Notes under the pieces: generated by a model | Database searches by the model: none | The model's input: only the letters and a program-made list of their open reading frames with translations | Told to the model about the DNA's origin: nothing | Made by a program: the position numbers and the translations under genes | Assembly: GCA_900550065.1 (NCBI GenBank) | Contig: URQR01000001.1 | Location: 1-44,380 of the forward strand | Direction: 5' to 3' | Source of the DNA: an uncultured Eubacteriales bacterium | GTDB taxonomy: Bacteria; Bacillota; Clostridia; UBA1381; UMGS1253 | Length of the DNA stretch: 44,380 nucleotides | Shown: positions 5,451 to 44,380 of the stretch, in pieces | Layout: the number at the start of each line of letters is the position of its first letter | How positions within the stretch are numbered: position 1 is the first letter of the stretch

Positions 5451-6839
5451 CTATTTTCCGACGCAAAACTGCGCAAAAATTTCATCCACGATATCCGCGC
5501 TGACGCTTGCGCCTGTAATTTGGCCCAAGCTTTCGAGTGCGGCGGATATATCGATGATGCACATATCCATTGGCATACCCGAATCAAGCGTTTCAAGCGC
5601 GCCCGCAAGCGCCGTTTTCGCCGTCGTCAGTGCCTCGATATGGCGTAGGTTAGAGATAAGTGTGCTCGATGCACTGACCGCACCGAGCCTACATATAGAG
5701 GCGATTGTCCGCCGCAGCGTTTCGACCCCGTCGCTTGTCTTTGCGCTGATTGTTACAATCGGGTCGCCGCCGGCCTGCTCTTGCAGGGAAGACAGGTCGT
5801 ACGCCGCCGCTAAGTCGGATTTGTTGACGACAATAATCCGCTTCTTCTGCGCGGTCAGCGCAAGAATCTCTACGTCTTCTTCCGTGATAGGAACGGCATT
5901 GTCAAAGAGCGCTAAGACGAGGTCCGCACTTTCAATATATTGCCGGGTACGGTCTACGCCGATTTTTTCCACCGCATCGCCTGTTTCGCGCAGGCCCGCC
6001 GTATCAAACAAACGCAGTGCAACGCCGTCAATACTGATACTTTCTTCTATTACGTCGCGCGTCGTACCGGCAACCTCCGTCACGATTGCACGCTGTGACT
6101 GTGTGAGAGCATTGAGCAGCGACGATTTTCCGACGTTTGGCTTGCCGGCAAGAATGCACCACAGCCCTTCCTTCGCAATGCGCCCGCTGTCCGCACCTGC
6201 AAGCAGCGTATCGCACGCGGAAACCGCCGCCGTCAGCGTATCGCGCAGCCCCGCTTCCGACAAATCGGCGATTTCGTCGTCCGGGTAGTCGACTGCCGCC
6301 GCAAACTGCGCCGCCGTATATAAAAGCGGCGCGCGGATTTGCTCAATCTGCCGGGATAAGCCGCCCTCAAGCTGGCTGACAGCGTTTTTGATTGAGGCGT
6401 CGCTGTCCGCATGAATCACGTCGAGCACAGCCTCGGCCCGCGCAAGGTCGACCCGCCCGTTTAAAAACGCACGTTTTGTAAATTCCCCCGGCTGCGCCAT
6501 GCGAGCCCCGGCTTGTAACAACAGCCCGAGCGTCTTTTGCAGGATGGCGGGCGAGCCGTGCGTGGAAAGCTCCACAACATCCTCTGCCGTAAAGGTACGC
6601 GGCGCGCGCATTACGGCCGCCATCGCTTCGTCCACCACATTGCCGGTCGCTTGCTCGACAATGTGGCCATAGTGTACGGTGTGGCTCGGCGCGTCGTACA
6701 GGCGCTTTCCGGAGGGCGTCCGAAACACTTTGCCGGCAAGCGCGAGTGCGCGCGGCCCGCTGACGCGGATGACCCCGATTCCGCCTATGCCGGGCGGCGT
6801 CGCAATTGCCGCGATTGTATCTGTTTGGTTAGAGGGCAT
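5451..6839 (-). CDS. mnmE: tRNA modification GTPase MnmE
   Basis: DTIAAIATPPGIGGIGVIRVSG N-terminus, G-domain GKPNVGKSSLLN and DTAG, and C-terminal FCVGK. ATG at 6839 follows AAAGGGGAA. An in-frame GTG at 6857 is an alternative start. Confidence 0.92.
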   Translation of the reverse strand: MPSNQTDTIAAIATPPGIGGIGVIRVSGPRALALAGKVFRTPSGKRLYDAPSHTVHYGHIVEQATGNVVDEAMAAVMRAPRTFTAEDVVELSTHGSPAILQKTLGLLLQAGARMAQPGEFTKRAFLNGRVDLARAEAVLDVIHADSDASIKNAVSQLEGGLSRQIEQIRAPLLYTAAQFAAAVDYPDDEIADLSEAGLRDTLTAAVSACDTLLAGADSGRIAKEGLWCILAGKPNVGKSSLLNALTQSQRAIVTEVAGTTRDVIEESISIDGVALRLFDTAGLRETGDAVEKIGVDRTRQYIESADLVLALFDNAVPITEEDVEILALTAQKKRIIVVNKSDLAAAYDLSSLQEQAGGDPIVTISAKTSDGVETLRRTIASICRLGAVSASSTLISNLRHIEALTTAKTALAGALETLDSGMPMDMCIIDISAALESLGQITGASVSADIVDEIFAQFCVGK

Positions 6840-6908
6840 ACCCAATTCCCCTTTCACAAGTCGAATGAAAAATCCGCACCGGCAAGGTGCGGATATCGAT
6901 TATACAGT

Positions 6909-26281: not shown

Positions 26282-26640
26282 TGAGTAAACTGGACGGTTG
26301 CAGGCAGAGTGCCGTGAGGCCCTGTCTGAGGAAAGTCCGGGCTTCATAGGGCAAGGGTGCCGGATAACGTCCGGCGGAGGCGACTCCAGGGATAGTGCAA
26401 CAGAAAGAAACCGCCTGAATCGCGTGTTTTTGCGAGCAGGTAAGGATGGAAAGGCGAGGTAAGAGCTCACCGGCGGCCTGGCGACTGGCCGGCCATGTAA
26501 ACCCCACTCGAAGCAACACCACAAAGGAAGGAATTAAGCCGGCCCGGCGCTCCTTCGGGTAGGTGGCTAAAGGCGTGTGGCAACATACGGCATAGATAGA
26601 TAACCGTTCACGACAGAACCCGGCTTACAGGTTTACTCAC
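26282..26640 (+). ncRNA. rnpB: RNase P RNA (bacterial, apparently type A)
   Basis: Universal GAGGAAAGTCCGGGC and ACAGAACCCGGCTTA motifs. The P1 stem pairs tgagtaaac (26282-26290) with gtttactca (26631-26639). Confidence 0.9.
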
Positions 26641-26652
26641 AATAAAAACAAA

Positions 26653-26692: not shown

Positions 26693-27217
26693 TCATTGCT
26701 GCGCATGTGGGTTTTTTACACAAAAGATTAGGTGCGGCATGTCTATGCCGTAGTAATGTTTCGTAAACTGTCCGCATACCTCCATGCCGTTTCGCCGCGC
26801 GACGCTTTGCGACGCTATGTTGTTGTCGCGTATAATGGAGTATACCTCGCTCACGCCGAGTGTATCAAACGCATATTCTTTGCAGCCGATGGCCGCTTCC
26901 GTGGCGTATCCCTTATGCCAGCAATCCTTACGAAACAGATAACCGATTTCGACGACGCGGCCTTCCGGTATGTCCTGCATAGTGAGGCCGCACTGTCCGA
27001 TTAATTCGCCGCTTTCTTTTAAAATCACAGCCCAAAGCCCGAACCCGTCGTCTTTGTAGCGCTGTAGCTGACGGTTTAGCCAATCTGCCGCTTCCGCGTC
27101 GGAGAAAGCGTGTTCGTACGCATACATGACCTCTTCGTCCTGTAAAATCCGGCACAATGCCGGAAGATCGTCTTGTATCATTTGGCGCAGCAAGAGCCGC
27201 TTTGTTTCCAAAACCAT
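26693..27217 (-). CDS. GNAT family N-acetyltransferase (RimJ/RimL-like)
   Basis: 174 aa. TKRLLLRQM N-terminus and an acetyl-CoA binding-like WHKGYATEA. Confidence 0.8.
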   Translation of the reverse strand: MVLETKRLLLRQMIQDDLPALCRILQDEEVMYAYEHAFSDAEAADWLNRQLQRYKDDGFGLWAVILKESGELIGQCGLTMQDIPEGRVVEIGYLFRKDCWHKGYATEAAIGCKEYAFDTLGVSEVYSIIRDNNIASQSVARRNGMEVCGQFTKHYYGIDMPHLIFCVKNPHAQQ

Positions 27218-27231
27218 AGCTTACTTCTCCC

Positions 27232-27588
27232 TTATTTACGTTCCTTTTCTGCTACACGGCTTTCGTGTTTTTCATAATATCCAATCAATCTTCCCGCGCC
27301 GTCGCGGAGTGCGACGATGTACACGTCACAGTTATGGCGCCGATGTGTATATTTTTTATTGTTATTCACATCTTCCGCAAACCAGCTTAGCGTATCTTTT
27401 ATAATTTGGACGGAGTGCACATTGTGACAGTCGAGCAGAGACTGCCCGATTAAGGACGCACCGCCGTACTTTTTGTACCGTTTTTGCGCCGTCGGATTTA
27501 AATAGACGATTTTATGGTCCATATCTGTAATAACAATTGGTTCGTCGTCAAGGTCGACAATACTTTTAAAAGCCTCCGATAGATTCAT
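27232..27588 (-). CDS. stand-alone PAS domain protein
   Basis: PIVITDMDHKIVYLNPTAQKRY...GQSLLDCH pattern. ATG at 27588 follows GGAGGGA. Ends 14 nt upstream of the GNAT gene. Confidence 0.7.
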   Translation of the reverse strand: MNLSEAFKSIVDLDDEPIVITDMDHKIVYLNPTAQKRYKKYGGASLIGQSLLDCHNVHSVQIIKDTLSWFAEDVNNNKKYTHRRHNCDVYIVALRDGAGRLIGYYEKHESRVAEKERK

Positions 27589-27739
27589 TTTTATCCCTCC
27601 TATCAAATAATAGCAAATATACCCGAAAAAGCACAAGTTTATTTAAGGACAGTAAGCGTTAGGCTTTTTCTAAAGGTATGGCGGATGTGTTGTTAGTATA
27701 ACACAATGGCACAAGGACTGCAAACCCAACTAATGCCAA

Positions 27740-27769
27740 AAGCCGGGCATACATTTGTATGTCCGGCTT
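27740..27769 (-). terminator. 14-bp hairpin with a short U-tract on the minus strand, inside a doubtful ORF
   Basis: aagccgggcataca-tt-tgtatgtccggctt. The minus-strand version is followed by TTTTGG. Confidence 0.35.
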
Positions 27770-28479
27770 CTGTTTGAAAATCGTAAAATGAAACTGACGA
27801 TGGACACCACGGCCGAAAATAACTTCTGTTGTGGATACTGAGTATTTGCTGCACGCCACCGGCGGCACAGTCCCATCCTGTACCAGACCCGAAGAAATCA
27901 TCATTTTCTTGCTGTCCATGCCGCTCTCTTGTTTGAGAAAAGGGCAGCCGTCATATGGCATAAATTGAAAGAACTGTAAATAATAGAAAGTGCCCCCATA
28001 CATCCCATAAGGAATATGAAAGCACAAATAATGTAACTGGCAATCATATCCGAAATGGATTTAGACCCTATAGTTTTGCGTCACTATTTTTCAATAGTTT
28101 TGCCATATTCAATTTAGCCAAATTTATCGTAGCACACATCCGTACATAAGTCAATATTTATTTTGAAAAACTTGATTAATACGCAAATTGTTTTGATGGT
28201 CGGCACATAAGAAAAATCGTGGGTATCATAAAAGCGCTTTTCATCTTTTCTGTCGCTGCGTTCTACCTCGCAGTTATGGCGAAGGGGACGAGAACGAATG
28301 AAATAATATATGCAAAAACTTATCAATTGTAAAAACTACTCTACACGTATATACATTTTAAACGTTTCATTTCAACAATAAAAAATACAAAATATTTTTC
28401 GCCTACCTGATAGAAGTACAAAAAAACTTGTAAAATATGAAGGTAATACGCCTAACCTAAGGACTTTGTTTTGGATATG

Positions 28480-28514: not shown

Positions 28515-28591
28515 TGGTGGGCCCTCAGGGACTCGAACCCGGGACCGTTCGGTTATGAGCCGAATGCTCTAACCAACTGAGCTAAGGGCCC
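28515..28591 (-). tRNA. tRNA with CAU anticodon, probably tRNA-Ile2 (lysidine type) rather than elongator Met
   Basis: Minus strand reads GGGCCCTTAGCTCAGTTGGTTAGAGCATTCGGCTCATAACCGAACGGTCCCGGGTTCGAGTCCCTGAGGGCCCACCA. It has a 7-bp acceptor stem, anticodon loop CTCATAA and an encoded CCA. The D and anticodon arms resemble recalled Bacillus and E. coli tRNA-Ile(CAU). Confidence 0.9.
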
Positions 28592-29969: not shown

Positions 29970-31550
29970 ATGACGAAACGACAGATTCAACTGCTAAAAA
30001 CGCTGTACAGCGCACAGGGTTATCTCACATTTCAGGAGCTTGCTGCCCCGCTCGGCGTTTCCGTTAAGACGGTCCGCAACGATATTTATGCAATTCGGGA
30101 GTTTTTATCCCGTGAAAATTTGGGCGCCATTGAATCAAAGCCGCATCTCGGTGTGCGGGCCTGTATAAATGAAAAAGAATGGGAAATGCTTCTTAATAGC
30201 GGCAGGGCCGCTCTGGAGGAGGCCGAAGAAGATAAAAAGATTTTATTTTTCATTATCCGTCATCTGCTCAAACATGCGAGCCTGACGGCGCAAAGGCTGG
30301 CAGAACAGTATTACATCAGCCGGACGCAGCTCGAAAAGATTTTAGAAGCCGCCGGCGAATGGTTCGCAAAAAACCACATCGTATTTGAGCGACGAAGAGG
30401 CAAAGGCATTTCCATCCTGTACAGCGAGTTTAACTATCGACTCGCTCTGCTTAACTTTTATTTAGAATATAAGGCGGAGTTTTACCGTCCGGAGGCGGTG
30501 CGCAGCTCACGTATGGCAGCAGTGGACGACTTTGAATACACGGCGCTGTGTAATGCATTAGACGGGTTTGATGTCGACAGCGTCGCGGAGGCGGTTGCCG
30601 GCTTGGAAACGCGGTTTGGCTTCCGATTGAGTTATACGTCGAATGTGACCTTGCTGTTATTGGTTTCTTTATGTATCATTCGCCAAAGAAAGGGTAAAAT
30701 AGCACAAGTGCCACAGCCGCCGGCCTGCAAAACCGACGGGCTGTCGGACGAAATGGTGACGAATGTGCTCATAGAAGACCTACAAGCGCGATTTTCGCTA
30801 CAAATTCCGCGCCAAGAGTGCGAGTTTCTCTTGTTCGTCATTGCGGTCAGTGAGATACAGGGCTATGAAATCGACCGGTTTCGGCGCACCTATGAAGCGG
30901 CAAATATTGAACTGTGCCAGCTTACGGTAAAATTTGTGAATTTGGTCAGCGAAATTACGAATGTGGATTTGCGCGACGATAAGTTTTTTGTCACACAAAT
31001 GTTTTTACAGCTCAAGGCTATGATTGCCCGCTTAAAATACCAGACGGGGTTTAAAAACCCGCTATTGCGGCAGATTAAGGCAAAATACCCGAACCTGATG
31101 GCAATGGCGTGGTCGGCGGGCAACATCTTTGAAAAGGAATTGCAATTAGACATCAATGAGCACGAGGTCGCATATTTGGCGCTTCATATCGGCGGTGCGA
31201 TTGAGCGAAGCAGTGCGAACCTGCGGGTGTGCATCGTCTGCGACTATGGAATCGGTATTTCACAGATTCTGCGTGAAAAGATACAGCGCGCGCTGCCGGA
31301 GCTGAAAATTACCTCGGTTTTTTCCAACCGGGAGCTGCGCAGCATACGCGGTGAGGCGTGTGACTTTATTATTTCGACTGTCCCGATGGAAGGGATGACG
31401 CTTGGCAAGCCAGTTGTCACTGTGGGGCATCTGCTCGACGGCGGCGATGTTGAAAAAATAGAAGAACAGATGAAACACCTGCGCGCCGAGGGCGAGGACG
31501 AACAGGAGGCAATCGACACACTGGTAAAAACGTTGGATATGGCAGAGTGA
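29970..31550 (+). CDS. PRD-domain transcriptional regulator (MtlR/LicR/BglG-type; HTH + Mga-like + PRDs + EIIB-like, no C-terminal EIIA domain)
   Basis: N-terminal HTH (RQIQLLKTLYSAQGYLTFQELAAPLGVSVKTVRNDI), PRD-like segments (HEVAYLALHIG) and a C-terminal RVCIVCDYGIGISQ (EIIB-like Cys). At 526 aa it is shorter than full MtlR-type regulators. Confidence 0.8.
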   Translation: MTKRQIQLLKTLYSAQGYLTFQELAAPLGVSVKTVRNDIYAIREFLSRENLGAIESKPHLGVRACINEKEWEMLLNSGRAALEEAEEDKKILFFIIRHLLKHASLTAQRLAEQYYISRTQLEKILEAAGEWFAKNHIVFERRRGKGISILYSEFNYRLALLNFYLEYKAEFYRPEAVRSSRMAAVDDFEYTALCNALDGFDVDSVAEAVAGLETRFGFRLSYTSNVTLLLLVSLCIIRQRKGKIAQVPQPPACKTDGLSDEMVTNVLIEDLQARFSLQIPRQECEFLLFVIAVSEIQGYEIDRFRRTYEAANIELCQLTVKFVNLVSEITNVDLRDDKFFVTQMFLQLKAMIARLKYQTGFKNPLLRQIKAKYPNLMAMAWSAGNIFEKELQLDINEHEVAYLALHIGGAIERSSANLRVCIVCDYGIGISQILREKIQRALPELKITSVFSNRELRSIRGEACDFIISTVPMEGMTLGKPVVTVGHLLDGGDVEKIEEQMKHLRAEGEDEQEAIDTLVKTLDMAE

Positions 31551-31580
31551 TACCGTGAAAATAGTTTCACGTCAGAAAGT

Positions 31581-33269
31581 ATGGTGATTATAGTGAAGGA
31601 ATTGAAGGGCATTCCGGGCGCACCCGGAATCGCGCAGGGGCCTGTGGTTCTCTATAAAAAGAATAAGGGCGGCGGCGCGGCGATTGACCTCGACACGGCA
31701 GCGAAGGCGTGCCTTGACAATGTGCGCAGGCTCTACGAAAAGACGCTGCGTGAATTAGGCGAGGAGCAGGCAAAAATCTTTTCCGCTTATGAGATGCTGC
31801 TCGAAGACCCGATGCTGCTTATGCCAATACAGGCGGCGATTGACGCCGGAACCCCGGGCGTGACGGCGGCGGTAGAGGAAACAAAAAAGCTCAGCGAAAT
31901 ACTGGCGAGCAAAGGCGGCGAGTACATGCGCCAGCGTGCGGACGACATCCGCTATATTGGCGAGATGCTCGCAGACGCAATTTCCGGTGAAACGAGCAGC
32001 TATGTGCTGCCGCAGGGAGATGTCCCCTTTCTGCTTGCTGCGCACGAGCTGACGCCGGTCGATACGATGCAGTTCGACGCGTCGCGCCTTGCAGGGCTTG
32101 TGACAGAGCTCGGCGGTGCAACGTCGCATACGGTTATTTTGGCAAAGTCGCTCGGGATACCGGCTGTTGTCGGTGTAAAAGGTCTTGCAGAGCAGGTGCA
32201 GGGCGGCGAGACGGGCTTTTTGGACGGATATACGGGCGAATTTGTGACCGAGCCGGACGAAAAGGTGCGCGCCGGCTTTGCAAAAAAGATAGAGGAAGAT
32301 CGGCAGCTGCAGGCGCAGATTGGCACGATTAAGGATGAGATTACGCACACGCTCGACGGGCAGCGCATCGCGGTTTGTATCAATATTGGAAAGCCACAGG
32401 ACCTAAAGGGCGCGGACGAGATGCAATACGACGGCGTAGGGCTGTTCCGTTCGGAGTTTTTGTACTCCTCGTCGGATAAAAAGCCCACACCGGAGCAGCA
32501 GCGGGAGGCGTATCAAAAGGTGATAGACACGGTTGCGCCTAATCCGGTGATTATCCGGACGCTCGACGTCGGCGGCGACAAGCAAATTGCTTATTTACAC
32601 ATGCCGCAGGAGGAAAACCCGTTTTTGGGCAACCGCGGTATCCGGCTTTGCCTGCAAAACCGCGCTGTTTTTGAGGAGCAGCTCGAGGCAATTTTGACAG
32701 CGACGGCAGGAAAAAACGTCAAAATTATGCTTCCGATGGTGACGAGCGTCCATGAGATAGAAGATACAAGGCACATGATAGACGAAATCAAGCAAAAGCT
32801 TGACGCTGCGGGCATAGCGTACTGCCGTGAGGCACAGCTCGGCATCATGATTGAAACACCGGCAAGCGCAATCATGGCCCATCAGTTTGCAAAGCACTGT
32901 GACTTTTTCAGCATCGGCACGAACGATTTGGTGCAATACATTATGTCGGCAGACCGCGGCAACGCACACGTTCAGCATATCTATAACCCGTGCCATCCGG
33001 CTGTCGTACACATGCTCGCACAGGTGATAGATGCGGGCGCTAAGGCCGGTATTGAGGTCAGCGTCTGCGGCGATTTAGCGGCGGATTTACGCTTTACGAA
33101 GCTGCTGTTAGGCTTTGGACTCAAAAAATTCAGCGTACCGCTCCCGATGGTGGGCAGAATCAAGTATAAAATCCGCAATACGGATTTAAAGGACGCGCGC
33201 GCACTCGCAAAACGGGCGCTGGACGCAGAGGATGAAGCAATGATTTCACAACTGTTGGAGGAGGAATGA
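31581..33269 (+). CDS. ptsI: phosphoenolpyruvate-protein phosphotransferase (PTS Enzyme I paralog)
   Basis: LKGIPGAPGIAQG, phospho-His motif GGATSHTVILAKSLGIPAVVG, IRTLDVGGDK, GTNDLVQY and VCGDLA. An in-frame GTG at 31593 is an alternative start. Confidence 0.9.
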   Translation: MVIIVKELKGIPGAPGIAQGPVVLYKKNKGGGAAIDLDTAAKACLDNVRRLYEKTLRELGEEQAKIFSAYEMLLEDPMLLMPIQAAIDAGTPGVTAAVEETKKLSEILASKGGEYMRQRADDIRYIGEMLADAISGETSSYVLPQGDVPFLLAAHELTPVDTMQFDASRLAGLVTELGGATSHTVILAKSLGIPAVVGVKGLAEQVQGGETGFLDGYTGEFVTEPDEKVRAGFAKKIEEDRQLQAQIGTIKDEITHTLDGQRIAVCINIGKPQDLKGADEMQYDGVGLFRSEFLYSSSDKKPTPEQQREAYQKVIDTVAPNPVIIRTLDVGGDKQIAYLHMPQEENPFLGNRGIRLCLQNRAVFEEQLEAILTATAGKNVKIMLPMVTSVHEIEDTRHMIDEIKQKLDAAGIAYCREAQLGIMIETPASAIMAHQFAKHCDFFSIGTNDLVQYIMSADRGNAHVQHIYNPCHPAVVHMLAQVIDAGAKAGIEVSVCGDLAADLRFTKLLLGFGLKKFSVPLPMVGRIKYKIRNTDLKDARALAKRALDAEDEAMISQLLEEE

Positions 33270-37128: not shown

Positions 37129-37159
37129 CGCCCGCAGGGTTTTCTGCGGGCGTTTTTTT
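37129..37159 (+). terminator. rho-independent terminator of the PTS/aldolase operon
   Basis: cgcccgcag-ggtttt-ctgcgggcg followed by TTTTTTT. Confidence 0.75.
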
Positions 37160-37361
37160 ATGTACGCGCCTCCTCCGGCTCCTCGCGCGCCGTCCAGTGC
37201 GGACACGTCTGGCCCGGGTCGCGCTGCTTAATGCGCGGGTACACGCAGTGGCCGTAGTGCAGAGATGTGAAGCGTCCGGCTTCGTAGCGCACATAGTGCC
37301 GGCGATAGTGCTTGCATGTGCCGCAGACGGTTTGTTCGACGATTTTGTATTTCTTTTTCAT
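37158..37361 (-). CDS. small Cys/His-rich hypothetical protein (zinc-ribbon-like)
   Basis: MKKKYKIVEQTVCGTCKHY...HYGHCVY...CPHW. ATG at 37361 follows GAGGTG. Confidence 0.5.
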   Translation of the reverse strand: MKKKYKIVEQTVCGTCKHYRRHYVRYEAGRFTSLHYGHCVYPRIKQRDPGQTCPHWTAREEPEEART

Positions 37362-37469: not shown

Positions 37470-37498
37470 TTTACTTTACCGTTTAAACCTGCTACAAT
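37470..37498 (+). promoter_or_regulatory. putative promoter of the riboswitch leader
   Basis: TTTACT, a 17-nt spacer, then TACAAT, about 25 nt upstream of the aptamer P1 stem. Confidence 0.4.
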
Positions 37499-37520
37499 AA
37501 AGCTGTAAAACCAAATATAA

Positions 37521-37695
37521 ATACGGCGGGGCATATTTTTTTTGGAAGTCCGGTGCAAGTCCGGCGCTGTGTCTCGGCAACCGTGAAGCCAACGAACGGG
37601 CCACGTACAATATGTACAGTCACTGGGGGACAACCCTCGGGAAGGCGGCCCAAGTAGGTTAGAAAGGCAAAGCCGGTAGACGACCTTAGCCGTAT
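37521..37695 (+). promoter_or_regulatory. cobalamin (B12) riboswitch aptamer
   Basis: GGAAGTCCGGTGCAAGTCCGGCGCTG core, CACTGGGGGACAACCCTCGGGAAGGCGG, and the B12-box-like AGCCGGTAGACGACCTTAGCC. P1 pairs atacggc (37521-37527) with gccgtat (37689-37695). Confidence 0.8.
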
Positions 37696-37770
37696 GCAGC
37701 TGTTCTCTGGGGCGGAGCAATGCAAAACAAGGCGGAACTGTACGGACAGTACGGGGCCGGTCTTTGTTTG

Positions 37771-37795
37771 CGCGCGCCGTGGGCGCGTTTTTTTG
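37771..37795 (+). terminator. expression-platform terminator of the riboswitch
   Basis: gcgcgcc-gtg-ggcgcg followed by TTTTTTT, about 45 nt upstream of the ATG at 37839. Confidence 0.7.
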
Positions 37796-37838
37796 TTGCC
37801 TTTTGGAAACGGCAAAAAAGAAAAGGGGGCAACCACAA

Positions 37839-40800
37839 ATGAAACGAAACCATATGCGGCTGATGAGCCTGTTGCTTGCGCTGATGGTGCTGTGTTCCGC
37901 TGTGCCGGCGGCTTCGGCGGCGGACAGTGCACAGGCCGGCGCAATAACGGTCAGCGTCAGCTTTTACGACGGCGCGAACACGCAGTTTTTGTCCGGGCGC
38001 GAACAGGAAACGCTGGCGCCGGGCCTTGCGGCAAGCTACGGCTATACGTCAGCGGCGCTGACGAAGCACGCGGGCGAGGTAACGGTGTTCGACGCGCTGG
38101 TACAGGCGCATGTGCGTCTGCTGGGCGAGGCGTTCACACCGGAAATGAAGGACGACTTCCTGTCGCTGAGCAGCAGCGGTATGCTGACAAAAGTGATGGG
38201 CGAGGGCGGGGCGTACGGCCCGCCGTTTGGCTTTATGGTAAACGGGCGCACACCGAATGACGGCGTATATAACGAAGTGTTCGGCTCATATACCGGCTAC
38301 ACAGCGGATGATGCAGTCCTGCGCGACGGCGATGTTGTCGAACTCTTCTTTTATCAGGACCAGTCGTTCTGGGGCGATACATACACATGGTTTGACAAAA
38401 CGGAGGCCACGGTGCAGGCGGGTGCGCCGCTTGAGCTGACGCTGTCCGGATATATGGCGATGTTTGGGGTATATACGGAGCAGGTCATCGCGGGCCGCAC
38501 AGAGCCTGTAGCAGAAGTGGAAATTGTGCGCGGTACGTCGGCGGAGACGCTGTCGAGCACGGGACTTACGACGGATGAAAACGGAAAAGTGACGCTGACG
38601 TTTGATACGCCGGGAACATATATCGTGTCGGCAATCGGCGAAGAATACGCCGAGCTCGTTGCGCCGTGGTGCGTTGTAACGGTGAAAGCGCCGTGCGTGC
38701 GTGCGTCGCTGCGGGCACAGGCGGCGGGGGCGTTTTTGCTGCCGGAGCAAACGGGAGAAATTCCGGCCGGTCTTGCGGCAAAGTATGGTTATCAGAACGC
38801 CGCCTCAGTCACGGGCGTCAGTGCGCTCGACGCACTGGTACGTGCGCATGAGCTGCTGTTTGGTGAGATGTTTACACCGGAAACCGCGGGCGAGCTTTTG
38901 GCGGTGAACAATGGCTCGATAAGCCGTGTGTTCGGTGAGGACACTACAAACTTTGGCTTCACGGTCAACGGTGTGCAGCCGCACGGTGACACGTGGACAG
39001 AAGGGGGCGGCGGCTACCCGGGCTACTACAACGCGTATGCGGTGCATGAGGCGGCGCTCTCGGACGGCGATGCGGTTGAGTTTTTCCTGTATCAGGATTC
39101 GTACGGGCTTGACTTGTATTCTTGGTTTGAGCAGGAGGGGAAAAAAGTAAACGCGCTCACGGTAAAAGAGGGTGCGCAGGCTACACTCAAACTTTCAGGC
39201 TACAGCATTGGCTGGTACGGCGCGAGCGATGCCGTGATGATTGAGAGTATGACAGAGGCGGTCGCGGACGCGCAGCTCGCGTTCGTGGACGAATATGGCA
39301 ATATTACGGATATTACAGGAAAATTCACAGATGAAAACGGCGAAGCAACGCTCACGTTCGACACGCCGGGCAATTATGTCCTTACGGCTTATATTACGGA
39401 GGAGGACATCGCGGAGTATTACGCAACGCCGATTCTGATGCCGTGGCTGACGGTGGAAGTGCAGGAGCAGACCGAGGCGGAAAAGGCAGCGGCCGACCTT
39501 GCGCTGCTGTATGAGGCGTTTCATGGAACATACACTGCGTCTAAGCCGCTCGAATTTCCTTATGGGACGGACGAGGGGCAGTTTACAAACGCGCTAGCGT
39601 TTATAAAGAGTAAGGCGGCGGAACTTTTGCCGCACCGCACGGCGGACGAGATAACGATTGAGGCGAATATGACGACGCTGCCCGGCACAGTCGGCGCAGG
39701 CACGGCGATTGAGGCTAAGACGATGGACGCAATGGGCAACATTACGCCCGTGTACAGCGAAGCGGCAACAAAACCCGCTCTGATGAGCGTATATTTTGGA
39801 ATCGGCGCGCAGAAGTCGGGCAAAATCAATACGATTTATTTGTCTGTAGCACCGCTCACGGCGGACGCGCAGAAGAGGACGGAACTTGAGGCAAGTGCGA
39901 TTACATGGGATTCCATCCGCGGGAAAAACACGTCGCCGGATTCTGTGACGCAAAGTGTTGGCAAGCTGTCCGGCTCTACGGTCGGCGCGCTGTCGAATAC
40001 GCCGGCGATCTTTAAAAACGGTGTGAGTATTACGTGGAGTTTGACGCATACGGCTGGGACTGCGGGTGCGCTTACGCTCGACAGTAGCAGGAAAACGGCT
40101 GTTCTGCGCCCGAACGTGGGCGAGGCAGACGGCAAATACCGCCTGACTGCCACGGTGGCGAGCAAGGCCGAGCCGGAGGTTATAACAACGGCAGACTTTG
40201 ACCTTACTGTGCCGGCGTTTGCGCCTGCTGCGGCGGAATTTGCTGTATCGCCGGCTGATTTGACGCTTGCGGTAACAGACAACTATTATAAAAAAGCAGT
40301 CGATGAAAAATATATCACAATAGAGGAAGATGGCGCACGCCGGCATTATACGCTGCACGCAGGTGCGACGGGAGCGGCGCAGTCCTATGCATATACGGCT
40401 TCAAGAGAGGGCTATATTACAAAATCGGGGAGTGTTTCTGTGTCCGGCGACAGGACGGAGCCGGTGGAAATTGCGCTGACGGCCTCGTCGGAGCAGGACA
40501 CGAAGCTGAAATCGCTCGATGTGACAAGCCCGGCTCCTGAGGCGGCGAGCATTAAGGCGCCGATGGAGGCGTTTAACCCTGATACAGCGGCATATACGAT
40601 GACGGTGGGCGCGCTCGATTCTATCACGCTTGCGCCGTCGGCGTTTGTCGGAGAGGCGAAGGTAACTGTAACGCGCCATAGCTCCACCGCAAACGCCAAT
40701 AAGGGCACGACGACAGATACTACAGTTGCAGCTGGTAAGACGGCGGCCTGCTACTTAAAGACGGACGGGACGCCGACGGTTATCACGGTCACTGTGACCG

Positions 40801-43800
40801 CGCCGGAGGGCAGTACCCAAGAGATAACAACGCGCCAGTATACGCTGACCGTAACGCGCACAAATGAGGAGCATACGCTTAAAGCGATTGCGGTTTCGAC
40901 GAAGAGCACGGACGAGGGCGGCAAGAATGGGCGCGCCGTACCGCCGGAAGAGATATTGACGCCCACGCTCGACAAGGGCGGTCTTGCGGATAGGTACACC
41001 TGCTATGTCAACCACTACTGCGAGTCAGTACAAATTAAGCCCACGGCGGTGAAGGCGTCCGATATTAAAGAAATCAAAGTAAACGGCGAGGCGGTTGCCT
41101 CGGGCAAAAACTCGGACGATATTGCGCTTGCATATGGCAACAACCAAATTGAAATAGAAGTAACGAAAAACGACGGCATACAGGAAACGTATCACTTGAT
41201 TGTGCGGCGTAAGCAGGACGCGATACTGAGCGGCTTTGCCGTTACGGGCGGCATCGTGACCGCACCGGTTTCTAAGTGGACGGCGAGCGCCAACTTTGCG
41301 TACAGCGCGCAGACAGTTACGCTGGCGTTTGACGCGCCGGAGTGCAGCACAATCACGGTAGAAGGCGTAGAGGGAACCTATGCGCCGGGCGAGCCGGTTC
41401 TGATTCCGGTTGGGGACGAAAAAACGCGGATGATTACGGTATCTGTGCGCAAGGAATTTGAAGAAGACGGACAGACTTATACCGATCATCACGCCTATGT
41501 CATTGGTCTGTACCGGATGGCGGCGGCCGCGCCGTCGGCGGTGGAGGCGTATTTGCCCGCGCCGGGCCAGTTTGTAAACCAGGACGCGTATCAAAACCCG
41601 GAAAAGACACTTGCCGGAGCGAGCGGCGGCGCGGTGACGCTCGGGTCGTTCGGCGGCAGCATTGTATACCGCTTTGATGAGCCGATTAAAAACGACGAAA
41701 AAAACCCATACGGCGTAGACTTCATTGTCTTTGGCAATGCATTTGCCAATGCGGACGGCACAAGCAGCGCAAGCGCGGCGGAACCGGGCGCGGTCATGGT
41801 GTCGAAGGACGGGCAGACATGGTACGAGCTGGCGGGCAGTATGTACTATGATGCGAACACGCGCCATAATATCAGCGTGACCTATGAAAACCCCGACCCT
41901 GCGTTTTCCGGCGCAGCAGATATTTCGTGGACGGACAGCGAAGGCAATACGGGCGTGCTCGCGAAAAATGCATTTCATACCCAGCCGTACTATCCCAACC
42001 CGGCATACTTTGGAAGCTATAACACGCGCCTAGGAAAAAATGACACCTATACGGCACAGACAATGACGGTAGCGGGCGGCACGGTGTTCGGCAGCGCACA
42101 TTCGCCGGCGTATGGCTACGCCGATACACATGCGGCGGCCAGCACGGTAAGCAACCTTGCCGTAAATCCCTACCGTGAAAACCACTATAAGGCCGCAAAC
42201 GGCGACGGCATGGACCTGTCTTGGGCGGTCGATGAAAACGGGAACCCGGTTGCGCTTGATGAGATAAGCTATGTTAAGATCTATAACCCGACCCTATATG
42301 TGGGTGGGACAGGCGAGCTTTCGCCGGAAATTACGGGCGTCTTGCGCGCGCAGGCGAGCGATACGGCGGTCGGCAAAACGCAGGATTTGACCGCGCTGTC
42401 GATGAACGGAAAGGAAATCGCGCTGAAGCCGGGCGTATATACCTACAGCTTTGACAGCGAAGGCGCTGCGGCGCTCACGGTGGGAGCAGACTGCGGCGAA
42501 GCGGCGAATATCTATGTGGGCGACACGTATATCCCGTCGGGGTCTGTGACGCCGGCGTTCCTTGCGGGCGATAAGGTACGCGTCGTTGCACAGGCGGGCG
42601 AAAAGGAGCCGGTTATTTACACCATCACAATCGAAGGCGCGGGCGCATCCGCCGCAAACGCGGACCTGTCCTCTGTGACAGTGATTCCGGGCGACATTGC
42701 GGCGCGCTCTGACGGCGACGCGGGCTTTAGAGCGACTGTGCCGTATGAGACCAGCAGTATCCGCATTTGCGCCGTGCCGCTCAATGCAAAAGCGTCAGTA
42801 CAGGTGCAGGAGGAACCGCTTAGCGCAGACAGCGGATGGGTTGGTACACAGTCTATCTCGCTTACGGCGGGAAAGACGCTCGACATTCCCGTTACTGTCA
42901 TTTCACAGGATAAAACGATAGTCGAGCAATATACCGTAAGCGTAACGCGTAAAGCGTCGGGCGGCGGTTCCGGCGGGACGGAAACGGATACAATCAGCGT
43001 ACGGTTCTCGTTAATTGGCGATAGTAAGCACGCTGCGGCGGCACATACGAAGTTTGAGACGTGGCTTGCGCCGAAAACGTATCAGATTCCGAAGGGATCA
43101 AAGGTAAAATACTTAACGGATAAAGTCTTGATTGAAGCAGGGATTCCGTTTAAGACCGACGCAAAGGGAACGTATATCACAGAGATTAACGGCCTCGGCG
43201 AGTTGGACAATGGGCCGCTGTCCGGCTGGATGTATACCATCAACGGTACGCACAAAGATATCAATGGCTATGCATCGCAAACGCTGTTCGACAATGATGT
43301 GGTCGTATGGCACTATTCGGACGACTATACGAAAGAGGACGGCAGTATTGACGACGACGGCGGCAAAGGTAACGGTGGCTCCGGTACGGCCCAGACGGAC
43401 GATACGGCGTCGGTCGTGTCCGGCTCGACAGTTTCGCCAAAGGTGACGGCAAAAAATAACGCCGCTTCGGTCACAGTTGCGTCCAAGTATATTACGGCGG
43501 CGCTGAAAAATACCGCTTCGGACGGACAGCTCACAATCGCGCCGAAAATTACCGGCGCGGCGGACAGCGTATCAGTGACACTTACGGCGAAGGATGCAGC
43601 GAGCGTTGCGGCGAAAGCGGGCAGTTTAGCGGTAAAGACGGAATTTGCCGTGGCTGTTCTGCCGAAGCAGTCGCTTGCGGCAATAAATTCAGGCGATGTG
43701 ACCGTAATACTCAGCAAAAACACAGACGGCACAGTTACAGCGTCGCTCACCTGTGGCGGCAAAGCGGTAGAACGCTTATCCGGCGGTATGCGCATTGCGC

Positions 43801-44366
43801 TGTCTGCGCCGCAGGAGGCGGTGCCGGTGGCTGTGCTTGCCGGCGGCGATAAAATACTTACTAAGTCCGCATTGATAGACGGAATGCTGTGGATACTGGC
43901 GGACGGCCCTGTAACAATTAAGCTGACAGAGAATGAAAAGCTGTATACCGACGTGAGCGGACATTGGGGCGCGGCGGACGTCGCGTTTGTATCGGAGCGC
44001 GGCCTATTTTTGGGCGTGGACGATACGCGTTTTGACCCGGACGGGGCTATGACGCGTGCAATGCTTACCACGGTGCTATACCGTCTGGAGGGCGAGCCGG
44101 ACGGCGCGGCAGGGAAACGCTTTGACGACGTTGCGGCGGACGCGTGGTACGCGCGTGCGGTGGCATGGGCGGCGGAAGAGCAAATCGTACTGGGGACGGA
44201 CAACGGCTTTGACCCGGAGGGCACGATTACCCGCGAACAGCTCGCGGCGATGCTGTGCCGCTATGCGGCGTATCTCGGACTGGACACGTCCGCGCGGGGC
44301 GGCCTTTGCGCGCGAGCAGCGCATATCCTTTCATATGCCCGTACACGGCGGGGGCATGCTATTTGA
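37839..44366 (+). CDS. giant secreted SLH-anchored surface protein with three transcobalamin-like (DUF4430-type) modules, cadherin-like beta-sandwich repeats and an unassigned central domain
   Basis: Start is the ATG at 37839 after AAAAGGGGG. Signal peptide MKRNHMRLMSLLLALMVLCSAVPAASA|AD. DUF4430-like signatures: FGFMVNG..RDGDVVELFFYQD, FGFTVNG..SDGDAVEFFLYQD and GWMYTINGT....FDNDVVVWHYSDDY. SLH domains: YTDVSGHWGAADVAFVSERGLF and FDDVAADAWYARAVAWAAEEQIV. The ORF-track N-terminal 25 codons run through the terminator and are rejected. Confidence 0.85.
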   Translation: MKRNHMRLMSLLLALMVLCSAVPAASAADSAQAGAITVSVSFYDGANTQFLSGREQETLAPGLAASYGYTSAALTKHAGEVTVFDALVQAHVRLLGEAFTPEMKDDFLSLSSSGMLTKVMGEGGAYGPPFGFMVNGRTPNDGVYNEVFGSYTGYTADDAVLRDGDVVELFFYQDQSFWGDTYTWFDKTEATVQAGAPLELTLSGYMAMFGVYTEQVIAGRTEPVAEVEIVRGTSAETLSSTGLTTDENGKVTLTFDTPGTYIVSAIGEEYAELVAPWCVVTVKAPCVRASLRAQAAGAFLLPEQTGEIPAGLAAKYGYQNAASVTGVSALDALVRAHELLFGEMFTPETAGELLAVNNGSISRVFGEDTTNFGFTVNGVQPHGDTWTEGGGGYPGYYNAYAVHEAALSDGDAVEFFLYQDSYGLDLYSWFEQEGKKVNALTVKEGAQATLKLSGYSIGWYGASDAVMIESMTEAVADAQLAFVDEYGNITDITGKFTDENGEATLTFDTPGNYVLTAYITEEDIAEYYATPILMPWLTVEVQEQTEAEKAAADLALLYEAFHGTYTASKPLEFPYGTDEGQFTNALAFIKSKAAELLPHRTADEITIEANMTTLPGTVGAGTAIEAKTMDAMGNITPVYSEAATKPALMSVYFGIGAQKSGKINTIYLSVAPLTADAQKRTELEASAITWDSIRGKNTSPDSVTQSVGKLSGSTVGALSNTPAIFKNGVSITWSLTHTAGTAGALTLDSSRKTAVLRPNVGEADGKYRLTATVASKAEPEVITTADFDLTVPAFAPAAAEFAVSPADLTLAVTDNYYKKAVDEKYITIEEDGARRHYTLHAGATGAAQSYAYTASREGYITKSGSVSVSGDRTEPVEIALTASSEQDTKLKSLDVTSPAPEAASIKAPMEAFNPDTAAYTMTVGALDSITLAPSAFVGEAKVTVTRHSSTANANKGTTTDTTVAAGKTAACYLKTDGTPTVITVTVTAPEGSTQEITTRQYTLTVTRTNEEHTLKAIAVSTKSTDEGGKNGRAVPPEEILTPTLDKGGLADRYTCYVNHYCESVQIKPTAVKASDIKEIKVNGEAVASGKNSDDIALAYGNNQIEIEVTKNDGIQETYHLIVRRKQDAILSGFAVTGGIVTAPVSKWTASANFAYSAQTVTLAFDAPECSTITVEGVEGTYAPGEPVLIPVGDEKTRMITVSVRKEFEEDGQTYTDHHAYVIGLYRMAAAAPSAVEAYLPAPGQFVNQDAYQNPEKTLAGASGGAVTLGSFGGSIVYRFDEPIKNDEKNPYGVDFIVFGNAFANADGTSSASAAEPGAVMVSKDGQTWYELAGSMYYDANTRHNISVTYENPDPAFSGAADISWTDSEGNTGVLAKNAFHTQPYYPNPAYFGSYNTRLGKNDTYTAQTMTVAGGTVFGSAHSPAYGYADTHAAASTVSNLAVNPYRENHYKAANGDGMDLSWAVDENGNPVALDEISYVKIYNPTLYVGGTGELSPEITGVLRAQASDTAVGKTQDLTALSMNGKEIALKPGVYTYSFDSEGAAALTVGADCGEAANIYVGDTYIPSGSVTPAFLAGDKVRVVAQAGEKEPVIYTITIEGAGASAANADLSSVTVIPGDIAARSDGDAGFRATVPYETSSIRICAVPLNAKASVQVQEEPLSADSGWVGTQSISLTAGKTLDIPVTVISQDKTIVEQYTVSVTRKASGGGSGGTETDTISVRFSLIGDSKHAAAAHTKFETWLAPKTYQIPKGSKVKYLTDKVLIEAGIPFKTDAKGTYITEINGLGELDNGPLSGWMYTINGTHKDINGYASQTLFDNDVVVWHYSDDYTKEDGSIDDDGGKGNGGSGTAQTDDTASVVSGSTVSPKVTAKNNAASVTVASKYITAALKNTASDGQLTIAPKITGAADSVSVTLTAKDAASVAAKAGSLAVKTEFAVAVLPKQSLAAINSGDVTVILSKNTDGTVTASLTCGGKAVERLSGGMRIALSAPQEAVPVAVLAGGDKILTKSALIDGMLWILADGPVTIKLTENEKLYTDVSGHWGAADVAFVSERGLFLGVDDTRFDPDGAMTRAMLTTVLYRLEGEPDGAAGKRFDDVAADAWYARAVAWAAEEQIVLGTDNGFDPEGTITREQLAAMLCRYAAYLGLDTSARGGLCARAAHILSYARTRRGHAI

Positions 44367-44380
44367 TCCGCAAGTCAGGG
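44263..44380 (+). CDS. possible 5' end of a PLP-dependent Orn/Lys/Arg decarboxylase family gene (partial, runs off the window)
   Basis: An alternative frame reads ..GAAFAREQRISFHMPVHGGGMLFDPQVR. This resembles the conserved N-terminal FH(M/V/I)PGHK(G)G..(M)DP motif of this family. The only in-frame ATG (44263) lies inside the SLH-coding DNA. Confidence 0.35.
   Translation, partial: MRRISDWTRPRGAAFAREQRISFHMPVHGGGMLFDPQVR

Follow-up and report, generated by a model that had tools for sequence, protein, structure and literature searches.

Whether Gram-positive bacteria of the gut carry surface machinery for capturing vitamin B12 is the question raised by a giant gene at the end of a contig from an uncultured Eubacteriales bacterium (GenBank assembly GCA_900550065.1, contig URQR01000001.1). 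Gut communities are shaped in part by how their members compete for B12 and other cobamides, and to our knowledge surface capture machinery is known only for Bacteroidota, in the form of BtuG, BtuH and BtuJ. The window, as the whole analysed stretch is called here, is the entire 44,380-bp contig. The gene (37839-44366, + strand) encodes a protein of 2,175 residues and follows a cobalamin riboswitch. Four modules from two B12-binding domain lineages lie on this single chain, together with signals for secretion and anchoring, and the gene has a leader with regulatory anatomy. The order from the N-terminus is two divergent transcobalamin-like modules, a BtuH-type domain and a canonical DUF4430 module nearest the wall anchor. 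The product is probably a wall-anchored, riboswitch-repressed binder of corrinoids at the cell surface.

Residues 1226-1510 (41514..42368, + strand), which an earlier note made from the sequence alone had left as a "large unassigned domain", have close relatives among proteins of Bacteroides thetaiotaomicron. A phmmer search of PDB sequences aligned them with residues 396-655 of 8BLW_B, the H-domain of BtuG1 (BT_1490), with E 2.3e-29, and with residues 224-485 of 7BIZ_A, BtuH2 (BT_1956) with bound cyanocobalamin (CNCbl), with E 1.2e-13. The AlphaFold2 model of the segment (pLDDT 77, pTM 0.85) retrieved the same two structures in Foldseek, 8BLW_B at E 4e-21 and 7BIZ at E 3e-18 (TMq 0.67-0.68). 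The next match had an E of 0.025, in keeping with a globular fold unique to this domain type and without further structural homologues. Together the phmmer and Foldseek matches identify the segment, by homology to the C-terminal domain of ~270 residues in BtuH2 and BtuG1, as a BtuH-type B12-binding domain. 8BLW is B. thetaiotaomicron BtuB1-BtuG1, and the C-terminal extension of ~250 residues in BtuG1 is homologous to BtuH2 (PMC10404256). The PDB entry 7BIZ is described as a B12-binding lipoprotein of B. thetaiotaomicron and is cited in the BtuH2 paper, which reports crystals of BtuH2 with cyanocobalamin (PMC8941943). The view that the protein is architecturally unrelated to the Bacteroides binders therefore has to be given up, as BtuH, and BtuG1 carrying the same domain, are homologous to this segment.

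The published ligand contacts of BtuH2 were mapped onto an alignment of 177 sequences. Chain indices run 100 below the residue numbers, an offset checked on all eight residues examined (Q333, N399, F401, H476, Y510, W511, W577 and L578). Q333 and N399, which contact ribose and phosphate, do not vary among 175 members of the family. The window protein is one of these, and it also retains the lower-ligand residue F401 and H476. The invariance of Q333 and N399 argues for a corrinoid that bears a nucleotide loop and against loop-less precursors of the cobinamide type.

Three modules had been assigned to DUF4430, and the assignment stands for the last of them. Module 3 (residues 1712-1835; 42972..43343, + strand) passes PF14478 with an E of 1.8e-10 and 41.6 bits against a cut-off of 23.8; searched alone against PDB sequences, it gave nothing significant. 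Module 1 (residues 33-185; 37935..38393, + strand) and module 2 (residues ~291-430; 38709..39128, + strand) are genuine paralogous domains that share 43% identity, and a hidden Markov model (HMM) of the module-1 family recovers module 2 with an E of 1.5e-47. An exhaustive HMMER search placed 453 representative clusters in the module-1 family at E <= 1e-3, with members that are often N-terminal in large secreted proteins or are proteins of ~300 residues. NCBIfam holds no model for any of the three types of binding module. Comparison in hhalign of the profiles for the module-1 family and for the DUF4430 family around module 3 gave a probability of 93.1% and an E of 3.2e-7 over 68 columns, which span the helix, the VNG strand and the GD-V-F-Y strand.

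The AlphaFold2 model of module 1 (pLDDT 90.4) points in the same direction. In a Foldseek search of the PDB, haptocorrin, transcobalamin, intrinsic factor and DUF4430 proteins take all of the first 12 places, and generic beta-grasp proteins come next. The best structures comprise haptocorrin (4KKI), transcobalamin (7QBE, 7QBG, 8IXU and 8IXT), the isolated transcobalamin beta domain (5NO0 and 5NP4), intrinsic factor (3KQ4) and a DUF4430 protein (3U7Z). The structure 5NP4 documents binding of CNCbl by an isolated transcobalamin beta domain. Against the isolated beta domains and 3U7Z the TMt of module 1 is 0.47-0.60. Modules 1 and 2 are thus best regarded not as DUF4430 proper but as a sister family of the transcobalamin-like SLBB domain, one that has diverged and is larger. 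The relation of both modules to the transcobalamin beta domain is distant yet consistent, with support that is moderate rather than strong.

The leader of the gene contains a cobalamin riboswitch aptamer (37522..37694, + strand), and the motifs and coordinates in the earlier note prove correct. A Rfam scan of the whole window matched RF00174 at 37544-37681 (+ strand) with 43.7 bits against a gathering score of 31.5 (E 7.5e-8), a local match that covers model positions 47-167 of 189, and a rescan of the leader only gave an E of 7.8e-10. The motif GGAAGTCCGGTGCAAGTCCGG begins at 37544, CACTGG...GGGAAGGC begins at 37621, and the B12 box AGCCGGTAGAC occupies 37671-37681. In the RF00174 alignment the conserved core reads GGAAGUCCGGUGCAAGUCCGG and GUCACUGG...CGGGAAGGCGG, and the B12 box reads AGCCGGUAGAC. 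The core and B12 box thus follow the pattern GCCACUG ... AGCCxGxAGAC inside a P1 helix. This helix, in which TACGGC (37522-37527) pairs with GCCGTA (37689-37694), falls beyond the covariance-model alignment; it was read from the sequence and is present in the minimum-free-energy fold.

The elements of an expression platform surround the aptamer. A sigma-70 type promoter, TTTACT-17-TACAAT with an upstream TG (extended -10), is predicted at 37470..37498 (+ strand). Downstream lie an intrinsic terminator (37772..37795, + strand), composed of the stem GCGCGCC-GTG-GGCGCGT (37772-37788) followed by T7, and a putative ribosome-binding site, AAGGGGG (37823..37829, + strand), 9 nt ahead of the ATG at 37839. 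Riboswitch and terminator together would gate the gene, as had been proposed. In a constrained fold the 5' strand of P1 (ACGGCG, 37523-37528) pairs with the 5' arm of the terminator (CGCCGU, 37775-37780), which makes this pairing a candidate antiterminator.

The association of such genes with B12 riboswitches extends to relatives, as a check suggested in the earlier note bears out. Homologues of the giant protein, from 95% to ~30% identical to it, were examined in seven loci, here numbered L001 to L007, and six of these have the riboswitch upstream. These are L001-L004, whose homologues range from 95% down to 43% identity, L005, with an aptamer of 104 bits, and L006. The order of promoter, aptamer, terminator and start codon is kept in L003, L004 and L005, with terminators that are unrelated in sequence and lie in the same place; an equivalent promoter precedes the riboswitch in L003 and L005. 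The constancy of this order with unrelated terminators supports control by transcription termination.

In L006 (uncultured Eubacteriales, LT599017), two giant DUF4430/SLH paralogues are adjacent, one cobalamin riboswitch standing ahead of the first and two in tandem ahead of the second (aptamers 32-180, 6295-6439 and 6612-6851). Downstream of them are genes for an SLH protein related to the alpha-toroid protein of L005 and for a small DUF4430 protein.

A wider survey, in which two peptide patterns from module 1 were scanned over GTDB species genomes, yielded 33 loci. A cobalamin-clan riboswitch (RF00174 or RF01689) lies on the same strand in 17 of them and ends within ~290 nt upstream of the start of the module-1 open reading frame (ORF), where that start could be placed. 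Three further loci have sub-threshold matches at the equivalent spot, one of them cut by a contig end, and no cobalamin-clan match was listed elsewhere in the module-1 loci scanned. In the loci L009-L011 module 1 is combined with an alpha/alpha-toroid (Prenyltrans-like) region behind strong cobalamin riboswitches of 86-96 bits. DUF4430 is present as well in L009 and L010, and in L009 all three parts fall within one ORF of ~990 residues. In effect, this type amounts to a full-length transcobalamin-like protein of bacteria to which one more module has been added at the N-terminus.

The signals for export and attachment agree with the earlier description of a secreted, SLH-anchored product with cadherin-like repeats. 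A Sec signal peptide (residues 1-27; 37839..37919, + strand), with the cleavage motif AVPAASA/AD, was read by eye from the translation. Pfam finds four cadherin-like repeats (PF12733), two SLH domains (PF00395; residues ~2033-2136) and one DUF4430 domain (residues 1773-1827) in the 2,175-residue protein. The SLH pair (residues ~2031-2140; 43929..44258, + strand; E 1.8e-22), the predicted cell-wall anchor, matches the SLH structures of Bacillus anthracis Sap (9G93, 3PYW and 6BT4). The signal peptide has no lipobox cysteine, the SLH anchor is not that of an outer-membrane lipoprotein, and no btuB or btuG gene was found in the window. The protein thus holds a BtuH-type domain without being a BtuH lipoprotein.

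The same parts recur in relatives. Searches with tblastn across the loci found module 1, the BtuH domain, DUF4430, a BamB-like beta-propeller, an alpha/alpha-toroid (Prenyltrans) protein with SLH domains, and an ECF module. In the set formed by the best 120 whole-protein matches and the window protein (n=121), module 1 is present in all, the BtuH domain in 40, and DUF4430 and SLH domains in most. The order module 1, BtuH, DUF4430, SLH, from the N- to the C-terminus, is kept across homologues.

Several observations weigh against a surface corrinoid binder. In the BtuH-type domain half of the BtuH2 ligand residues are changed: the corrin-amide contacts W511 and W577 are replaced by G and L578 by T, and Y510 is aligned with a gap. 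The pocket is thus conserved where it faces the nucleotide loop and remodelled where it faces the corrin amides; binding of B12 is plausible without being guaranteed. The changes on the corrin side are among the points that favor a ligand other than a complete cobamide, whether another tetrapyrrole (heme, or a precursor such as cobyric acid or cobinamide) or a surface glycan; in that case the riboswitch would tie an adhesin or a protein of the S-layer type to the B12 status of the cell for some other reason. The soluble ligands of SLBB domains are diverse, and in some clades the ligand is polysaccharide (PMC1796856). The transcobalamin-like proteins of L. sakei have been proposed to bind heme (bioRxiv 864751), and the neighbors of the orthologous genes encode heparinase-like and Cu_amine_oxidN1 surface proteins. 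Such a ligand is nonetheless very unlikely, given that two unrelated types of B12-binding domain occur within one protein, that cobalamin-clan riboswitches stand ahead of 17 to 20 of the 33 independent module-1 genes, and that the residues contacting phosphate and ribose in BtuH are invariant.

The transcobalamin-like modules contribute further points against corrinoid binding. No match of modules 1 and 2 to PF14478 was found at E <= 1, either with the full protein or with the isolated modules in Pfam, where the isolated modules gave weak Ig-like (immunoglobulin-like) matches in their C-terminal half only. When PF14478 was run against modules 1 and 2 with 31 family members, only two of the 33 sequences reached an E of 0.0035. 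The family profile of module 1 finds NOMO and macroglobulin Ig-like repeats in the PDB and no transcobalamin sequence, so that at the level of sequence the transcobalamin link of modules 1 and 2 is carried by hhalign and the fold alone. The Foldseek E-values of the top matches of module 1 are weak at 3e-3 to 2e-2 (probability 0.77-1.0). Moreover, the window protein has no alpha/alpha-toroid domain, with no Prenyltrans or SQHop_cyclase match. In transcobalamin this domain supplies half of the B12 pocket, and the window protein is therefore not a complete transcobalamin. An alpha/alpha-toroid partner is present, either separate or fused, in the relatives L005, L006 and L009-L011.

On the regulatory side, the RF00174 match in the window is local, as given above, and the antiterminator is a computed alternative only. 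The fold energy of the whole leader is not better than that of shuffled sequence (z -0.8), and fold energy was for this reason excluded as evidence. Relaxing the threshold did not reveal a riboswitch for the homologue in L007, and roughly one in three of the module-1 loci has no detectable one.

No B12 transporter was found in the window by family scans of its ORFs, as the earlier note had stated, nor does one lie downstream in the closest orthologues. The lack of a transporter gene beside the giant gene, in the window as in those orthologues, would suit a surface reservoir or sink that serves corrinoid hoarding or competition, with no dedicated hand-off to a transporter. Four modules on one wall-anchored chain likewise suggest capacity over throughput. 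BtuH2 releases B12 extremely slowly (PMC10404256), and a reservoir role has been proposed for BtuJ1 of Bacteroides (bioRxiv 2025.07.01.662609). The gene neighborhoods of other relatives point instead to delivery. In many of them an ECF transporter, composed of CbiQ and a fused EcfA-A'-S, is encoded in the same operon as the homologue, often immediately downstream of it; in L005, L007, L014 and others the operon holds the homologue with CbiQ, EcfA-A'-S, small DUF4430 and alpha-toroid genes. Repression by intracellular B12 is also the logic of an acquisition gene. A role purely in hoarding is thus rather unlikely, and hoarding and uptake are compatible with each other.

A recurrent operon of related content occurs in L014-L017, L019, L020, L022, L023, L026 and L027 (Acutalibacteraceae and other Clostridia). 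It encodes a protein of ~330 residues with module 1 and an Ig-like part, a BamB/PQQ-like beta-propeller, CbiQ and the fused EcfA-A'-S, and most copies have no detectable riboswitch. The beta-propeller of L014 is reminiscent of BtuG, but its sequence does not support homology: it has only a weak BamB match and no sequence similarity to BtuG.

The last point against the reading concerns the anchor, which is incomplete in the assembly of the window. The contig-terminal sequence (44307..44380, + strand), when aligned to L001 and L002, is unlike these orthologues; it stands where they have the third SLH domain, and the stop codon lies within it. These final ~74 nt show no similarity to the 95%-identical orthologue loci, and the last 50 nt match nothing in any fetched locus. 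The ORF is 39 residues shorter than in the orthologues, which run on into a third SLH domain, so that the canonical set of three is not seen here. The count of two SLH domains given in the earlier note is thus correct for the window and reflects the contig end. The break may have arisen at the end of the assembly as an artefact, at the junction with a mobile element, or through a real disruption of the gene. A damaged or mis-assembled copy, not properly anchored or a pseudogene, would account for complete divergence at the very end of a contig from a metagenome-assembled genome. It is extremely unlikely given that the remaining 6.5-kb ORF is intact and 95% identical to full-length orthologues, that two SLH domains are still present, and that divergence exactly at the contig end is most simply explained by assembly. 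The two-SLH count and the stop codon are most likely artefacts of the assembly end. The 2,175 codons are open, with no internal stop, and the product is 95% identical over its full length to a metagenomic protein of 2,214 residues. An exact look-up found the product itself not on record, probably because its C-terminus is specific to this assembly.

A corrinoid binder that is displayed on the wall and repressed through its riboswitch suggests the following mode of action. At high intracellular corrinoid, P1 would close, the terminator would form and transcription would stop. At low corrinoid, the 5' strand of P1 would pair with the 5' arm of the terminator and the gene would be read through. 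The exported protein would then be held on the secondary cell-wall polymer through its SLH domains and would present corrinoid-binding sites at several heights above the wall. Cobamides or their precursors may be bound outside the cell and passed to a membrane transporter, presumably encoded elsewhere in the species of the window and, in many relatives, by the ECF module in the operon. Such a protein would be a Gram-positive counterpart, in the form of one polypeptide, of the BtuG/BtuH/BtuJ surface relay of Bacteroides.

A more specific version would have four sites of three kinds on a wall-anchored stalk hand the ligand from the tip to an ECF importer, with the module-1 family as a new B12-binding domain. 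The three kinds would be the unmodelled transcobalamin-like subfamily of ~150 residues, a BtuH domain whose corrin pocket has been remodelled, and canonical DUF4430. Specificity for cobamides or precursors may vary from site to site. The module-1 family, with its 453 representative clusters and strong riboswitch linkage, would then be widespread in gut Clostridia. This relay is put forward tentatively, as a possible but somewhat doubtful elaboration, and its details deserve much less confidence than the surface binder itself.

The likeness of the working of the protein to that of BtuH and transcobalamin holds by inference only. As with BtuH2 and BtuG1, the BtuH-type domain ends a chain of Ig-like domains, the protein is predicted to be extracellular and the gene is under a B12 riboswitch. 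BtuH2 and BtuG1 are outer-membrane lipoproteins, whereas the window protein is Gram-positive, carries a Sec signal peptide and has SLH domains as its wall anchor. Its domain is internal to a chain that carries three transcobalamin-like modules, three of the BtuH2 contacts are replaced as described above, and it has neither a BtuB/BtuG partner nor an adjacent transporter. The cobamide relay of Bacteroides, from BtuG, BtuH and BtuJ to BtuB, resembles the present system in its several B12-binding surface modules of different folds and its B12 riboswitches, with the presumed purpose of catching scarce cobamide and moving it inward. It differs in that the modules of the window, as read from sequence, lie on one wall-anchored Gram-positive polypeptide and in that the likely receiver is an ECF-type or BtuFCD importer rather than a TonB-dependent transporter.

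Precedents on the Gram-positive side bear on how far the idea is new. Burroughs, Balaji, Iyer and Aravind predicted in 2007 that secreted or cell-surface bacterial proteins with transcobalamin-like SLBB domains scavenge B12, and noted that fusions of these proteins to Ig-like domains and a location of their genes next to CbiO/CbiQ are frequent (PMC1796856). The window protein shares with them its predicted secretion, surface location and fusion to Ig-like domains, and its relatives stand beside ECF genes of the CbiQ/CbiO type. In contrast, its anchor is SLH and not LPXTG, the riboswitch link and the BtuH fusion are absent from the 2007 description, and modules 1 and 2, at ~150 residues against ~100 for the known transcobalamin-like domain, are missed by Pfam and NCBIfam. 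Putnam et al. noted in 2022 three btuH homologues in Firmicutes, one of them near an ECF transporter (PMC8941943). ECF-CbrT is the vitamin B12 importer of Lactobacillus delbrueckii (Santos et al. 2018, PMC5997447). The lsa1836-1840 operon of L. sakei, with its transcobalamin alpha-like and beta-like proteins, shares its gene-neighborhood logic with L005, L007, L014 and other related loci. Unlike the ECF-CbrT and L. sakei systems, the window locus has no ECF genes and encodes a giant SLH-anchored chain rather than a small secreted binder.

The general idea of surface scavenging thus predates the earlier note. The remark in that note that no Gram-positive example has been characterised agrees with a 2026 review, in which the role of the BtuH and BtuJ homologues of Gram-positive Firmicutes is called "entirely uncharacterized". 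A literature search found nothing that joins SLH domains or S-layers with a cobalamin riboswitch, or transcobalamin with a riboswitch in Gram-positive bacteria. Three features appear to be new: the fusion of both B12-binding domain types in one SLH-anchored giant protein, direct riboswitch control of the gene, and module 1 as a separate, unmodelled and strongly riboswitch-linked family.

The rest of the chain consists mainly of beta-sandwich and spacer segments, all on the + strand. Module 1 is followed by an Ig-like beta-sandwich (residues 186-290; 38394..38708) with weak DUF4198 and CarboxypepD_reg matches; the family profile of the module-1 region matches NOMO Ig-like repeats. A second Ig-like beta-sandwich follows module 2 (residues 436-547; 39144..39479) and is recovered by the first in a phmmer self-match with an E of 6e-15. 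A spacer (residues 548-890; 39480..40508) contains one weak aBig_2-like Ig domain at ~725-793 and has no PDB or NCBIfam match. Three cadherin-like repeats (PF12733; residues 891-988, 1053-1125 and 1148-1215; 40509..41483) precede the BtuH-type domain. The fourth (residues 1630-1705, Pfam) lies in a beta-sandwich spacer after it (42369..42953), and the region ahead of the SLH domains (residues 1836-2030; 43344..43928) has no family match.

In the orthologous loci the giant gene is followed by a gene for a Cu_amine_oxidN1 protein of 894 residues and then by genes for heparinase-like proteins. The first of these genes is conserved, with 894-895 codons (L002 8839-11523, L003 16001-18688); its Cu_amine_oxidN1 domain is C-terminal, and Pfam and PDB searches gave no match for the first ~750 residues. 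In L002 the stretch that separates it from the giant gene shows no terminator, and it may be co-transcribed under the riboswitch. On the other side, divergent from the riboswitch promoter, a Cys/His-rich ORF of 67 residues (37158-37361, - strand; C13, C16, H18 ... H35, H38, C39 ... C53, H55) has a counterpart, also of 67 residues, at the equivalent position and orientation in L001 and L002 and no family match.

Upstream of the giant gene lies a phosphotransferase system (PTS) operon, comprising a PRD regulator, EI, EIIA, EIIB, EIIC and two class-II aldolases. The PRD/Mga-type PTS regulator, in the region 29970-33269, has 526 residues, against 668 with a C-terminal EIIA in L001 (1435-5431), the 95% orthologue locus. 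In L001 the regulator and ptsI are separated by a gene for HPr, of 85 residues, which the window lacks, and the difference between the two operons looks like a deletion. Elsewhere in the contig, a class I riboswitch for cyclic di-guanosine monophosphate (c-di-GMP-I; 28029-28114, - strand, 73.3 bits) stands directly upstream of an ORF of 122 residues without a Pfam match, in a c-di-GMP-controlled unit of three small ORFs on the - strand (27659-28027, 27232-27636 and 26693-27217). A bacterial class A RNase P RNA occupies 26282-26643 (+ strand, 297.6 bits). A tRNA gene at 28518-28591 (- strand) has the anticodon loop CUCAUAA in the Rfam alignment, which gives the anticodon CAU. The region 147-25479 carries housekeeping genes, for polyphosphate kinase, phosphofructokinase, mnmE, yidC, a DUF711 protein, a V-type ATPase operon and a WG-repeat protein. 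The phosphofructokinase shares a 90%-identity cluster with Candidatus Aphodoplasma excrementigallinarum, which belongs to the Clostridia. Among the ORFs scanned in this region, none was seen to encode a transporter, a B12-dependent enzyme or a cob/cbi product.

The locus makes the open question of surface cobamide capture by Gram-positive bacteria directly testable. The module-1 family lies behind cobalamin riboswitches in many Clostridia (Oscillospiraceae, Acutalibacteraceae and Anaerovoracaceae) and is often linked to ECF importers. If binding proves true, it would define how abundant gut Clostridia capture cobamides, would add a new family of B12-binding domains, and would bear on the proposed bacterial origin of animal transcobalamin.

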